This document shows, in pieces, positions 3,001 to 9,000 of a stretch of 11,750 nucleotides of DNA. Position numbers: made by a program. Every line of letters begins with the position of its first letter. Within the stretch, counting starts at the first letter, position 1. Source of the stretch: Arcobacter sp. (GTDB taxonomy: Bacteria; Campylobacterota; Campylobacteria; Campylobacterales; Arcobacteraceae). Location of the stretch: NCBI GenBank assembly GCA_965662175.1, contig CBFIGT010000070.1, positions 1-11,750 of the forward strand, read 5' to 3'.

Positions 3001-6000
3001 AACTTACTATAACTCTTCATACAAAAATTTAATCTATTATTGCAATAGTTTTGTTATAATAAACCAAAAATTGAGGTAAAAACATTGAGTAAAATAATTT
3101 TAGATGTAAATAGTAGCGATGTAAAAACTGTTTTAACTATTTTAAATAATTTAAAAAGTGGTTTGATTAAAAATATTCAAACAGAAGAGAAGAGCTCAAA
3201 ATATATTTCAAAAGATGTGTATAATGAAATGAAAGAGGATAAGGCAACTATTTCAACATCCAAATATGTCTCTCCTAGTGAATTTAAAAATAGAATTAAA
3301 AAGAAAGTAAATTAATGCAAATATTAGCAATAACTGTCATATTTTTAGCAATTTTAGCTTTTTTAATTTTTAAAATAAGAGACAGATTTAAAATAAAAGA
3401 GTTAGTGATTTTATTAGCAATAATATTCTCTTTTTCTCTAGTTACTTATTTTTACTTAGAAAATAAAGAGAATAAAATACCAAACTTATTTAAAGCTAAA
3501 TATGAAGAAGAGTTAAAAATAAAAATTAAAAAGTTTTCTAGTACTAGAGTTAATAATATATATTTATCTAGTGATAAAATTTTTGTCTATGATTTTAATT
3601 ATATTATTGAAAAAAATGGTATTGAAGAGTTTTGTTCTTTAAAAAATCAAAAGATTATCAAAATAGAAGATGAGTATGTTTTTGAAAACTTTAAAGAGTT
3701 AAAAGAAGAGTGTAAAAAAAAGTAAAATATGAGTAATAGTTACAAAAGATATATAAAACTCCTAAATAAAACAACAAAAGAGTTGTCCCAATTTGAACTT
3801 GAAAAATTAGATAGTAATACAAAACTTTTAAAAAAAGCTTTTGATATAGCCTACAATAATGGAGTATTCAAACTCTATGAGTATCCAATTGAGCTACAAG
3901 ATAGATTAAGGTTTGAACTTTTTTCTAGAATTACTAGATATTCAGGAAATTTATCTTTTTTAGCTATTCAAATTTTGGCTGCTAATACAATTATGAATAA
4001 AAACAACTTTTTAAAAAAAGAGCTTTTTTTTCAAAAAAAGTGTGGAATTGCAATTAATCACTTAAGAGCTAATAAAACATTTGTAAGTGCTAAAAAAACT
4101 GATGGTGGATATTTACTAAGTGGTGTTTTAACATGGGCTAGTGGATATAAAATATTTGATAAACTACTTATTGGTTTTCATTTTGAAAATAAAGAGTATG
4201 AGGTTTTAAGTTCATTTAAAAAAAGCTCAACATTTAAAATAGTAGAGACTCCAAAAACATTTGTTGGTCAAGGGCTTAATACAGTAAATATTGAGTTAAA
4301 AGAGTTTTTTGTAAAAGATGAAAATATTGTTTCATCAAATGAGATTGGAAATTATACAAAAAATAAATCCCTATCAAAAACTGTACATTATGCACTGTAT
4401 GGTCTTGGAATTGGAGCAATTAAAAACTTAGAAAATAGTCATTTCAAGCATATTTCAAAACTAAAACTTAAAAAGATAAAAGTCGCTTTTTTAAATTCAA
4501 ATAGTGGAAAAGAGTTAGATAATATTAGAGTAAAGCTATTTAAAACTGTTCAAGATATTATTACTACAGCTATGATTTTAAATGGTGGTAAATCTATTTT
4601 ATCAAATAAAAATCTACAAAGATACTATAGAGAGTTGATAATGTTTAATTCAAATGGATTAAACACTACAATAAAAAATCTTTTTTTAAAAGCTAGCATA
4701 AATAAAAAAGAGTTAGATTAAAATCTAACTCTTAATTTAAATATGTTAAAGCAAAAAGTCCAAATAAGCCTACAGCTGTCATTGTAAAAATTAAAACTGT
4801 TTTCATTAAAAATCCGTTAGTTTTTTCGATATCCATCTTAAATCCTTTTTCTTTATATAATCTAATTATAAAGTGCAAAGGTACTATAAAAGTATCAAAA
4901 ATGAAAAATATTAATAAGATTTTGTTACTTTTTAAAAAAAAGATAATAAAAGGGAGAAGTTTATTTTAAAATAGTCATAAAAGACTATTTTAAAATTTAA
5001 TTGAGAGAGAAGTTGCTTAAACTATATTTACAATATAAGTTACAACGACTACTCCTAAGATAGCCAGTGAAGTGAATAAACCTTTTGTAATCAACTTATT
5101 TAAACTTTCTAAATCCATGTAAGTGTTCCTTAAAATAAATTAAATAATTTTATAGATTATAAGCTTATAGAACGTTTAATTTTTATAATATTTTTACTTA
5201 TTTTGAATAGAAAATATATTTATGTTACTTTTTAGTTAGGTTTAAAAGACTTTTTAGTTTTACAAACTTTTATCAAAGGACAATTATCACAATCAGGGTT
5301 TAGTGCTTTACAAATATATCTTCCAAAAAGTACCATGGCTTGATGAAAAATGTGTAAATCATCTTTTAGTTTTTTAACCAATTCAGCTTCTGTTTTTTCA
5401 ACTGTTTTTTCATATGAAAGACCTAGTCTATGAGATACTCTAAATACATGAGTATCGACAGCCATTAAGTTTGCACCCTCAAACTCTATCATAAATACAT
5501 TTGCTGTTTTATTTCCAACACCAGCTAGTTTCATAAGCTCTTTTTGAATATGTGGAATTTCACCATCATAGTTTTCAATAACACTTTGTGCCATTTTTAT
5601 GATATTTTTTGATTTATTATTGAAAAATGAACAAGATTTTAATAACTCTTTTACATCTTCAAGTTCTGCATTTGCAAGCTCTTTGACACTTGGATACTTT
5701 TCAAAGAGTGCTGGAGTTATTATATTTACTCTTTTATCTGTACATTGAGCTGAAAGAATGATAGCTATTAATAGTTCATAATCATTTTTATATTCAAGCT
5801 CTGTAACAGCATCATCATACTTCTCTAAAAAAACATCTCTTATAAATATAATCTCTTCTTTTGTGGCTTTTTTTAATCTAGGCACAATATTTCCTCTATA
5901 ACTTTTTTATCTTCTCTATTTCATCTCTTAATCTAATAGCTTCTTCAAAATTTAAATCTTTTGCTGCTTTTGTCATGGCTTTATTAAGCTCAATTAGCAT

Positions 6001-9000
6001 CTTCTTACGCTCACTAGCTGGCATTTTTTCTAATTTATTTTTCTTCCAAGCTAAATCATCATACTCTTCAAGCTTTAAGTTCTCATCAAGTCTTCTAATA
6101 GTTGTTGTTGGCGTAATTCCATGCTCTTTGTTATGTGCTTCTTGTTTCTCTCTTCTTGCATTTGTTACATCAATAGCAAACTGCATAGAGTCTGTAACTC
6201 TTTTTGCAAATAAAATTACTCTACCATTTTGATTTCTTGCTGCTCTTCCCATAGTTTGAATCAATGATGTTTTACTTCTTAAAAACCCCTCTTTATCAGC
6301 ATCTAAAATAGCAACAAGTGAAGTTTCAGGTATATCTAATCCTTCCCTTAAAAGATTAATTCCAACTAATACATCAAACTCTCCAACTCTTAATTCTCTA
6401 ATAATCTGATTTCTCTCAATTGCATCTATTTCACTATGCATATATTTTATTTTGATACCTAAATTTGCATAATAAGTTGTAAGCTCCTCAGCCATTTTTT
6501 TAGTTAAAACTGTAACTAATACTCTCTCTTTTTTAGCAACAATTTTTTTAATCTCATCATGAAGTTTTTCTACTTGATATTCACTATCTTGTATCTCAAT
6601 AATTGGGTCTAGTAAACCAGTTGGTCTTATAACTTGTTCGGCAACTACAGAACTCATGGAGGTTTCAAGCTCATTTGGTGTTGCACTAACAAATAAATAG
6701 TATGGAGCTTTATTTATAAACTCATCAAACTTTAATGGCCTATTATCAAGAGCACTTGGAAGCCTAAATCCATACTCAACAAGTACCTCTTTTCTACTTC
6801 TATCAGCTGCATGCATTCCACGAAACTGAGGTAGTGAAACATGTGATTCATCAACAATTAATAGAAAGTCTTCATCAATTTGAGCAAAATAATCCAAAAG
6901 TGAATAAGGTGTTTCTCCAGGCTCTTTTCCTGTTAAGAGTCTTGCATAATTTTCAATTCCCTTACACATTCCAGTACCCTCAATCATCTCCAAATCAAAC
7001 TCTACTCTTTGCTTTAATCTTTGATACTCTACTAACTGGTCATTTGCTTTAAAATAAGCTAATCTTTCAGCTAGTTCTCTTTCAATCTCTTTAACAGCAT
7101 TTGCTAATCTATCACTTGAAACAACAAAGGGATTAACAGAATAAATAGTTACATCATCTAAGTTTTTAAGTTTATTGTTTGTCAAGTACTCATGGGTAGT
7201 TATAGATTCAACCTCATCACCAAAAAACTCTACTCTTAGAAATTCATCTTCCCAATAAGCAGGAAATATATCAATAACATCTCCATTTACTCTAAAATCT
7301 GCCCTATCAAAAAACTTATCATTTCTTTTATATCCCATATCAACTAGTTTTAGTAAAAGTTGTTTTTGAGAGTATTCAAAACCTGTTTCAAGTCTTTGAA
7401 CCATCGCTTTATACTCTTCAGGATTTCCAAGTCCATAATTTGCTGAAACAGAGGCTATAACAATTACATCATCAAAAGATAAAAGTGATGCTGTTGCACT
7501 TAATCTTAGTCTTTCAAGTTCAGCATTTATAGATGAATCTTTTTCAATAAACAAATCAGACCTTGGAATATAGGCTTCAGGTTGATAATAATCATAATAA
7601 GAGATAAAGTATTCCACATGATTATTTGGAAAAAACTGCTTAAATTCACTATAAAGTTGAGCTGCTAGTGTTTTATTATGGGTCATAATTAGTGTTGGCT
7701 TTTGTGTTTTTTCTATCACTTTTGCCATGGTATAAGTTTTACCTGAACCTGTAACGCCTAAAAGAGTATTGTATTGATTTCCTTTTAATATAGAGTCACT
7801 TAACTCTTTAATCGCTTGTGGTTGATCACCTGATGGTTCATACTCACTTTTTACTTTAAATTTTGCGATAGTTACTCCTTATTTAAACTCTTTATATCTG
7901 GATAAAAAGTATAAAAGTATTGCAACTTCTTCTCCAGTCCAGATTCTATTTTTTGATAAAATTTCTTTGTTTAATTGAATTTTTACCTCTTTTTTATACT
8001 TTAAAATTAATTTTGACATCAACTGCTTTAGTGAGCTTTCACTTTGTTCTATAATATCATCTTTAAATATTTCACTCTTATTTGGAATAAATAGTTCCAT
8101 CTCTCTTTTATATAAACTCATTAAAATACTAACCTGCCATGAATGCCAACTAGTTTTTGCATATTCAACAGCATTATTTCTATAATCCAATGATTCAAAA
8201 ATTCTTAATATCTTTCTAGATATATCTCTTATTTGATTATTAGAGAGTGACTCTACCTCTAAAGGAAGAGTTAAAACAGTAATTGTTGATTTTTGTTGAT
8301 TTTTTAAAGATAAAATAAATGCCTCTTTATCAAAATCTTCCTCAACTTTTTTATTTTTTTTCTTTAATAAAACTACTATTAAAACAATTAATAAAACTAC
8401 TATTAGTGATAACAAAAATAAAATTACTATTTCCATTAAATTTTAACCCCTATAAATTGACCTTTTAATAATACTACATACTCTTTACTACAATATAAAG
8501 ATTGTATGTTTTTATACAGTTTTTTATCAATTTCAAACTCATTACCTTGATGGAAATGACCCTCAATTATAATCTCTGCATCATAATGTTTAACTCTTTT
8601 TAGAACTATCTCTTTAAAGTTATTCATTTTTTTACAAATAGTTTTTTTTAATAATGAATAGTATATTTTTTTAGATATATAATTATTAAAATCAATTAAA
8701 TTCATAAAATTTAAAAAAAACTTATTTCTAATTAACTTACAGTATAAATCATAAAACCTATCATTTACAAAAATATCTCCATGGGAAATTCCTACTTTTT
8801 TATTTTCATATTGAAAAAAAACAGCTTGTTTTTCCCTTGGATAAACCTCAATTTTTGGAAAAAGCTTTTTTAGATTATAATCATGATTTCCCTCAAAATA
8901 AAATATCTCTATTTTTTTGGAAATATCATTTATTAAATCAATAACTTCCTTATTTCTATTTATAAAATATTTACTCTCACCTGATATAAAATCAAACATA

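Follow-up and report, generated by a model that had tools for sequence, protein, structure and literature searches.

Isoleucine-codon translation starts of uvrB and other conserved genes in Arcobacter and related Arcobacteraceae

Where does translation of uvrB start in Arcobacter sp.? The gene lies in the window analysed here, the whole 11,750-nt stretch at the beginning of contig CBFIGT010000070.1 (assembly GCA_965662175.1), and gene callers choose an internal ATG that gives a protein of 610 aa. The first-pass annotation had proposed that translation starts 47 codons further upstream, at an ATC preceded by AAGGAG and a 5-nt spacer. This arrangement is indeed present (Table 1): the frame is devoid of ATG, GTG and TTG from the upstream stop to the ATC, and the first such codon is codon 48, the ATG at 7728. 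Below, ATH (or AUH) denotes an ATC, ATA or ATT start codon, SD the Shine-Dalgarno sequence and G000 the genome under study.

Table 1. Features at the uvrB locus of Arcobacter sp. (positions in the window)
Feature	Position	Strand	Evidence
uvrB CDS from ATC start, 657 codons + TAG	5896..7869	-	NCBIfam PRK05298, 1006 bits, residues 3-656 on profile 1-652
ATC start codon of uvrB, presumably read as fMet	7867..7869	-	sequence; aligned codons in relatives
SD AAGGAG, 5-nt spacer to uvrB ATC	7875..7880	-	sequence; SD score 5.2
Walker A (helicase motif I) GVTGSGKT, UvrB residues 38-45, 5' of called start	7735..7758	-	translation
Internal ATG (Met48) chosen by gene callers, without SD	7726..7728	-	SD score -0.5
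185-aa gene 5' of uvrB	7879..8436	-	matches no NCBIfam family
nth (endonuclease III), 3' of uvrB, GTG start	5232..5885	-	TIGR01083, 230 bits, over cut-off

The full-length form of UvrB

The minus strand at the start of uvrB reads TAA(7881-7879)-GGA-GTA-ACT-ATC(7869-7867). The TAA, which ends the 185-aa upstream gene, is in frame with uvrB and overlaps its SD, and 9 nt separate it from the ATC; at the 3' end of uvrB, the SD of nth overlaps the stop codon. Against the 5.2 of uvrB, the median SD score of ATG starts is 2.6.

The alignment with the PRK05298 HMM begins at profile position 1 in the ATC frame and at position 46 in the ATG frame, and full-length UvrB exceeds the curated cut-offs of both PRK05298 (1006 vs 743 bits) and TIGR00631 (981 vs 750 bits). 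The called 610-aa form lacks the sequence GVTGSGKT, which we take to be the Walker A motif (helicase motif I), and the ResIII and DEAD Pfam matches are absent from it. The public protein collection holds only this short form and not that of 657 aa. A sequencing error at the ATC, for which the first-pass annotation had left room, can be set aside because contigs of three runs agree at the site: the contig of the independent run X4 spans 7822-7987 with 0 differences, and those of X1 and X2, which cross the uvrB start as well, have no listed difference there.

Other genes and the rate of conserved ATH starts

At least five more genes were said to start at ATC or ATT, and six had been named. All six starts were located in the G000 frames, each frame being free of canonical codons from the upstream stop to the ATH. 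The nearest canonical codon downstream is 111 codons away in the RhlE-like helicase (g01625; C62, ATC at 3717), 265 in the amiC-like gene (g01929; C86, ATT at 1701), 188 in g00087 (C2, ATC at 13792), 14 in g01256 (C39, ATT at 9813) and 18 in g01717 (C68, ATC at 4173); the CxxCxxCC gene (C125, 5216-5803), which is uncalled, has none in its frame. At least eight further genes are affected, and ATA is as common as ATC or ATT. The claimed conservation also stands: all seven starts, that of uvrB included, recur in relatives, and conserved ATH positions line up with the canonical starts of orthologues.

N-terminal domains reach into the extensions, such as DEAD (26-198), Mem_trans (4-143), HI0933 (from 3), Zn_protease (from 5) and Radical_SAM (from 9), and the extension is likewise needed for TatD (from 4), Response_reg (from 4) and FtsK_4TM (29-136). 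In public protein sets of the family, to which A. butzleri belongs, about 2% of the conserved genes are mis-started, and the proteins are deprived of catalytic motifs, membrane segments or entire domains.

The helicase is the most rigidly conserved case. ATH was found in all 35 orthologue loci whose start was read (14/14, 16/16 and 5/5); five more were located and left out of this count. The ATH orthologues form one clade (support 100/100), on which at least four third-base changes can be read off the tree, and 16 of 16 paralogue or outgroup loci have a canonical start. The best family is PRK10590, the RhlE equivalog (454 bits vs a cut-off of 743), so the protein is RhlE-like and not filed as RhlE. 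Only two of 120 database homologues (P0023 and P0075) begin at the ATH position. The statement that gene callers cut off such starts is right for most sequences, but in these two the NCBI annotation has the start at the ATH. In a third homologue, P0013, judged from its protein only, a Met stands one codon ahead of the ATH site.

Could these proteins begin at an internal canonical codon, or the genes be broken or mis-sequenced? The short forms in public calls, and an ATG six codons downstream of the start in many helicase orthologues, would fit such a reading. However, that ATG is missing in G000 and in 10 of the 13 other orthologues of the 14-locus set, the short helicase lacks 111 residues just as short UvrB lacks Walker A, and the C125 gene offers no canonical codon to begin at. 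The extensions are conserved, and the independent run has the same bases. We consider this reading extremely unlikely, and it is already largely refuted. The ATC, ATA and ATT starts of uvrB and of roughly 2% of the conserved genes are, judging from sequence, very probably real and SD-led.

Conservation varies among the genes. Within the family, ATH is found in 15 of 17 genomes for the AEC transporter, in 14 of 17 for the radical-SAM gene and at 10 of 11 readable loci for amiC. Several other genes revert freely to canonical codons: the RimK-type protease has ATC in two of four cases and the CxxCxxCC gene keeps ATH in two of four, with SD+ATG in three of the four canonical cases.

In G000 alone, ATC behind an SD of at least 5 nt was seen seven times in 5' extensions vs 1.1 expected (p = 1.3e-4); ATT (4 vs 3.3 expected) and ATA (6 vs 3.5) were not singly enriched in this one-genome test. 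Scans of one genome are noisy, with ATH as the top SD codon in 17 of 78 extensions and at 18 of 42 sites (15% expected). Only two-genome cases were counted, because many other one-genome matches are shadow frames or broken genes. Of the 24 upstream SD sites conserved between G000 and one congener, 14 have ATH in both genomes vs 8.1% expected (p = 5e-10, a value that, like all p-values across these genomes, is overstated, as the genomes are kin). With the helicase added, 15 of 829 gene pairs (1.8%) have a conserved ATH start, eight of them new here, and AGG ends 7-9 nt ahead of the start codon in all 15.

It should be noted that three other candidates were rejected. An ATA start of ksgA as conserved feedback is present in 1 of 30 genomes only, the AT-rich control G030; AzlC (C38, 13227) is canonical in three of three relatives; and in the Leu/Phe-transferase gene ATH is clear only in G004 and G006, G010, G013 and G017 having a canonical codon 5-6 codons upstream.

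Start types of uvrB across the family and the case for selection

The ATH starts had been described as real and selected. Real and conserved they are; selection does not follow from conservation alone, because at 3.2% G in fourfold sites (G000 has a G+C content of 27.8%) reversion to ATG is rare anyway. For the same reason, that the helicase never has ATG is expected even under neutrality. Better evidence for selection is the pattern of uvrB starts together with an excess of ATC.

In total, uvrB starts were classified in 41 family genomes: 20 are SD+ATH, 12 leaderless-type ATG, six weak-SD, two SD+TTG and one SD+ATG, so that 20 are ATH (ATA in seven of seven congeners) and 21 canonical; G017, for example, has ATG. 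Among the 20 ATH starts, SD scores range from 3.2 to 5.8. Leaderless-type starts make up 12 of the 21 canonical uvrB starts vs 14 of the 544 canonical starts in G000, 346 of which are preceded by an SD. The types alternate between close relatives: G058 (SD+ATC) is sister to G073 (leaderless ATG; support 99), and G035 (SD+ATC) to G011/G045 (weak ATG; support 100). Such a pattern suggests that weak initiation is selected for and can be achieved in interchangeable ways. As to the third base, ATC accounts for five of the 15 conserved starts vs 9% of Ile codons (p = 0.008), and the site has therefore not decayed as a neutral one.

Under tolerated drift, the ribosomes of these AT-rich Campylobacterota would accept AUH fairly well behind a strong SD; ATG-to-ATA changes would become fixed in weakly expressed genes and persist since back-mutation to G is rare, with no selection against ATG. 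The base composition given above is in line with this, as is the lack of a pathway common to the genes. In the AT-rich control from another family, two ATA starts were found in 159 pairs, a rate not different from 15/829 (p = 1.0; 0.4 of the 1.69 Mb of G030 was covered), and the ksgA ATA of that genome occurs nowhere else. This small control gives no support to the idea that the ATH habit is confined to Arcobacteraceae. Against drift stand the ATC excess, SD+ATG at uvrB in only one of 41 genomes, and the fact that ATH is retained in the same few genes at protein identities as low as about 48%, but not in about 98% of genes. We regard drift as possible but improbable.

A further reading concerns the upstream gene. 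If it supplied ribosomes by coupling or read-through, ATH would be a by-product of stop/start overlap. An upstream stop is no more than 12 nt away from nine of the 15 starts and overlaps three of these; the upstream TAA is in the uvrB frame in G000; and the uvrB ATA overlaps the TAG of the upstream gene in five of seven congeners, which by itself disfavours ATG there. However, no gene on the same strand ends within 1.7 kb of the helicase, radical-SAM, RimK-type or CxxCxxCC gene, the uvrB ATC of G013 follows a divergent frame, and congeners do not retain the in-frame arrangement on which read-through would depend. Such an origin is very unlikely.

Initiation machinery, a possible mechanism and known systems

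Among IF3, initiator tRNA, RsmD, KsgA and the S9 tail, no special initiation machinery was found: IF3 is not truncated, RsmD, KsgA and the S9 tail have not been lost, and no unusual initiator tRNA was seen in the sequence covered. G000 has three ordinary CAU initiator tRNAs and no GAU tRNA in its assembled sequence; two GAU tRNAs in the covered 60% of G006 are of the elongator type. The RsmD family and ksgA are present in 31 of 31 genomes, and the S9 tail is intact in G000. infC scores over the cut-off in 31 of 31 genomes; IF3 is full length, and none of its residues, compared by eye, tracks ATH use. The lack of a lesion in IF3, tRNA-fMet, RsmD or the S9 tail also speaks against drift. For infC, 25 of the 27 loci read (of 30, three being left out) have a TTG start, either SD+TTG or a TTG that opens the frame; G030 has ATG and G015 an ambiguous start. 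An AUU autoregulatory loop of infC was accordingly rejected.

By analogy with work on E. coli and S. aureus, AUC, AUA and AUU would be decoded by ordinary fMet-tRNA through a third-position mismatch. A strong, well-placed SD would hold the 30S subunit with the near-cognate codon in its P site, and most attempts would be rejected by IF3, leaving a small fraction of the output of an AUG start. AUH initiation is 1-2% of AUG in E. coli (10.1101/063800), and AUA/AUU give about 10% in S. aureus (PMC13009471). The codon would then be a fixed, gene-specific damper, maintained by selection where little of the protein is required (UvrB, FtsK, AmiC, the RNA helicase, TatD, a response regulator, transporters) and probably keeping these proteins scarce; in other lineages uvrB would reach the same low setting via an AUG that is leaderless-type or poor in SD. 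Low protein levels do not necessarily follow from a weak codon, because infC is well expressed from AUU (PMC5499595). On the whole, we favour this selected low-output damper as moderately probable.

Alternatively, ATH starts may sense the IF3 level or 30S maturity, as in E. coli infC, the genes rising when IF3 is scarce or assembly impaired. IF3 discriminates against AUU/AUC/AUA and antagonises leaderless mRNAs (PMC4611024), which are the two states of uvrB; start-codon checking becomes less strict when assembly is defective (PMC6868393), and an RhlE-like RNA helicase is the case with the most rigid conservation; nutrients and ppGpp affect non-AUG starts (PMC5499595), and the ccpN AUA of S. 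aureus varies with the medium (PMC13009471). With infC starting at TTG the classical IF3 feedback loop is absent, however, and the ATH genes share no function. Switching between leaderless and leadered forms is a general trait of this class (PMC3847290), and outside uvrB only three of 17 canonical orthologue starts are leaderless-type. We consider such conditional control quite improbable. A genome-scale regulon of some 20-40 Arcobacteraceae genes under IF3-sensitive initiation, including UvrB, the RhlE-like helicase, FtsK, AmiC and TatD, is doubtful as well; SD+AUH and leaderless AUG would be interchangeable in it, infC would lack its own AUU loop, and start-site architecture would be read by the IF3/IF2 balance or ribosome maturity.

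Starts of the AUH kind are already known from infC, pcnB, dnaA and ccpN; new here are the gene list, the rate and the swap between SD-AUH and leaderless AUG in uvrB. In model bacteria two to six are confirmed per genome, and these could be dampers, sensors or accidents. The AUU starts of E. coli infC and pcnB (10.1101/063800, PMC5499595) are likewise SD-led, near-cognate, IF3-discriminated and missed by standard callers; these are two confirmed genes vs about 1.8% of conserved genes in Arcobacter, and the E. coli infC autoregulation has no counterpart at the TTG-started infC. Conserved AUA/AUU starts with a strong SD occur in S. aureus infC, cvfC1, ccpN and citZ (PMC13009471), four sites with extended SD motifs, whereas Arcobacter has an ordinary AAGGA(G), over-represented ATC and other genes. 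The ATC of Deinococcus dnaA (PMC2830850) and the six fixed non-canonical starts among 2265 conserved genes of Listeria monocytogenes (PMC13068326) likewise represent ATC/ATT initiation of a conserved DNA-metabolism gene, preserved throughout a genus. The Arcobacter rate is about sevenfold that of Listeria (15/829 vs 6/2265, p = 2e-5, by differing methods). The Deinococcus and Listeria starts have peptide or experimental support, while those of Arcobacter are known from sequence. A literature search, with most subscription papers outside its reach, found no paper on AUH starts in Arcobacteraceae; in a C. jejuni study of translation initiation sites, peaks were called at ATG/GTG/TTG only (PMC11955535). 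The family provides dozens of cases in which sister species carry ATG, ATH and leaderless versions of one gene by nature, so that the role of AUH starts is directly testable.

A known parallel to the uvrB swap is the leaderless/leadered switching of Epsilonproteobacteria, in which one orthologue may have a -10 box immediately ahead of the ATG and another a ribosome-binding site (PMC3847290); the DNA repair genes nth and mutY are among the leaderless mRNAs of C. jejuni. That survey scored xTG starts only, whereas in Arcobacteraceae leadered uvrB nearly always starts with AUH and not AUG.

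The uvrB start and its annotation

The uvrB frame of the window is open on the minus strand from TAA 7881–7879 to TAG 5898–5896, and its start region reads TAA GGA GTA ACT ATC GCA, with AAGGAG, a 5 nt spacer and ATC at 7869. The frame then has no canonical codon (ATG, GTG or TTG) before ATG 7728, 47 codons past the ATC. UvrB models align with the ATC frame from position 1 and with the ATG frame only from position 46; the Walker A motif (residues 38–45) falls inside the stretch skipped by the ATG start. A contig from an independent sequencing run (X4) is identical to the window over 7822–7987 (0 differences). 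The claim of the first-pass annotation that uvrB starts at an ATC behind a Shine-Dalgarno (SD) sequence, 47 codons above the called start, is thus borne out by frame, spacing and model alignment. Its further claim that gene callers cut off such starts agrees with the public records, where UvrB is present only in a 610-aa form. Among 120 listed homologues of the RhlE-like DEAD-box helicase (contig C62 of this genome, G000), two start at the ATH position (ATA, ATC or ATT), both NCBI records, while the start is six residues late in 75, earlier in 17 and even later in 26.

The nth gene starts at GTG 5885, and its SD shares bases with the TAG that ends uvrB (window 5880–5900), so judging by the sequence uvrB and nth look translationally linked.

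Frequency of ATH starts in two genomes

All six other ATC/ATT sites named in the first-pass annotation were found, and their Pfam domains begin within the extensions. Within the 5' extensions of G000 itself, SD-led ATC was enriched (7 observed vs 1.1 expected) and no enrichment of ATT or ATA was seen. As the one-genome scan was enriched for ATC only, we compared G000 with 1.6 of the 2.66 Mb of its congener G006 (860 reciprocal best pairs, 828 with at least 100 codons). An SD was conserved above the first canonical codon in 24 genes, and ATH was present in both genomes at 14 of them, against 8.1% of such positions expected (p 5e-10); 13 genes of this set lack an SD at the canonical codon in both genomes, and 11 of these have ATH. 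The helicase, whose G006 locus crosses a tile edge, lay outside the pair set and was added because it has ATC in both genomes, giving 15 conserved ATH starts in 829 pairs (1.8%). AGG sits 7–9 nt before the start codon in all 15, eight of which are new (Table). About six further one-genome candidates of G000, some of them not conserved, stand outside these cases, and by extrapolation we expect 20–40 ATH-start genes per genome.

ATH starts new in G000 and those found in G030, a genome of another family
Gene	Start	Position	Genome
FtsK	ATH	C88 6007	G000
TatD	ATH	C46 2160	G000
ABC1/UbiB kinase	ATH	C27 6944	G000
OmpR-type regulator	ATH	C59 1606	G000
Radical-SAM/SPASM enzyme	ATH	C62 3624	G000
TPR protein	ATH	C6 8711	G000
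Leu/Phe-transferase-family protein	ATH	C90 1917	G000
FkbM methyltransferase	ATH	C4 42476	G000
ksgA	SD+ATA	L316 ~17900–18700	G030
MFS transporter	SD+ATA	L314 12695–13741	G030

Two short conserved-looking frames of G000, C29 ~18500 (+) and C12:2395 (+), which resemble ArsC-like and Rdx-like proteins, have neither a canonical start nor SD+ATH and are possibly frameshifted or selenocysteine-containing. Another frame, C6:34279 (+), presumably a Clp-type ATPase from its sequence, begins mid-protein; its G006 orthologue is ~176 codons longer, so this gene is broken or mis-assembled in G000.

Distribution among relatives

The helicase has ATH at all 35 orthologue loci read, and its paralogue and outgroup loci have a canonical start in 16 of 16; in a tree of 30 of these orthologues they group as a single clade, within which the codon changed between ATC, ATT and ATA no fewer than four times. 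The named relatives of this locus put G000 in Arcobacteraceae. The ATH start is found in 15 of 17 family genomes for the AEC transporter (vs 0/5 in other families), in 14 of 17 for the radical-SAM gene (vs 0/2 outside) and at 10 of 11 readable family loci for amiC, as well as in relatives for the HI0933 flavoprotein (4/5), the TPR gene (3/5), the RimK-type protease (2/4) and the CxxCxxCC gene (2/4), all these genome counts coming from kin rather than independent lineages. The helicase, with its ATC, lies next to the divergently oriented radical-SAM gene, with its ATA, and 92 nt separate the two (C62:3624–3717; L061, L275), a pairing kept in the seven congeners and G010. A second RhlE-like paralogue, present in congeners, was not found in G000 (assembly 94% complete).

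For uvrB we read 41 family genomes, 19 from the first set and 22 best-scoring new loci; a second search matched 60 of 61 genomes, and most of its weaker matches were left out, which biases the sample towards G000. An ATH start occurs in 20 of the 41 (10 ATC, 10 ATA), always with a strong SD. The other 21 are canonical: 12 leaderless-type ATG (-10-like box 5–7 nt upstream, no SD; a sequence-based prediction following the rule of PMC3847290), six weak SD, two SD+TTG and one SD+ATG. For comparison, the 544 canonical starts of G000 include 346 with an SD and 14 of leaderless type. In 11 genomes of other families uvrB is always canonical (six SD, four weak, one leaderless-type). Well-supported sisters differ on the FastTree tree (G058/G073; G035 vs G011/G045), so the start type switched repeatedly; genus g1 is not one clade there, which leaves its deeper order unsure.

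As an outside control we used 0.4 Mb of G030 (27.7% G+C), where ATA starts were found in two of 159 pairs, the MFS transporter and ksgA, a rate not distinguishable from that of Arcobacter. The habit may be wider in AT-rich Campylobacterota. Apart from G030, all genomes compared (29 of 30) start ksgA at a canonical codon. In most Arcobacteraceae (L333–L351) ksgA begins with an ATG that lacks an SD and is closely preceded by a -10-like box, which on visual inspection looks like a leaderless arrangement.

Initiation machinery and possible role

In many bacteria infC starts at AUU or AUA, whereas across Campylobacterales it starts with TTG at 25 of 27 loci read (G000:C1:47070–47610, L109; L031–L060). 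Established AUH starts (AUA, AUC or AUU) are those of infC, pcnB, dnaA, ccpN, cvfC1 and six conserved Listeria genes (10.1101/063800, PMC13009471, PMC2830850, PMC13068326), and our literature search found no published account of them in Arcobacteraceae. The AUH starts of Arcobacteraceae are almost certainly real and are a densely occurring form of this known start type.

In E. coli, non-canonical initiation rises when RsmD is lost or ribosome assembly is defective (PMC3643588, PMC6868393), which is why the machinery was checked. Every genome (31 of 31) has RsmD and KsgA, S9 of G000 retains its tail, and IF3 is full length in every genome aligned, with no residue seen among them that tracks ATH use. 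The initiator tRNAs of G000 are ordinary. A tRNA-Ile(GAU) was not found in G000 (assembly 94% complete); congeners have it, and the GAU tRNAs of G006 are elongator-type.

Most likely, AUH codons that follow a strong SD would be decoded inefficiently by the ordinary initiator tRNA, and selection would keep the output of these genes low. Measured AUH efficiencies are 1–2% in E. coli (10.1101/063800) and ~10% in S. aureus (PMC13009471). Selection for low output is suggested by the several routes by which uvrB avoids SD+ATG and by the over-representation of ATC (five of 15 conserved starts vs 9% of Ile codons). The lack of reversion to ATG in the helicase is no proof by itself, as G makes up 3.2% of fourfold sites, and in five of seven congeners (L002, L004, L005, L006, L008) the last two bases of the uvrB ATA plus the next base form the TAG of the upstream gene, which counts against over-reading this ATA as selection for low output. 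The general selection for AUG and the compensation of weak starts by SD that PMC5622118 finds fit both a weak start kept to hold output low and one tolerated as neutral change.

A bolder reading would place the AUH-start genes under control linked to IF3, a factor that acts against AUH starts as well as leaderless ones (PMC4611024); the leaderless alternative is, however, uncommon outside uvrB, where it accounts for three of 17 canonical orthologue starts.
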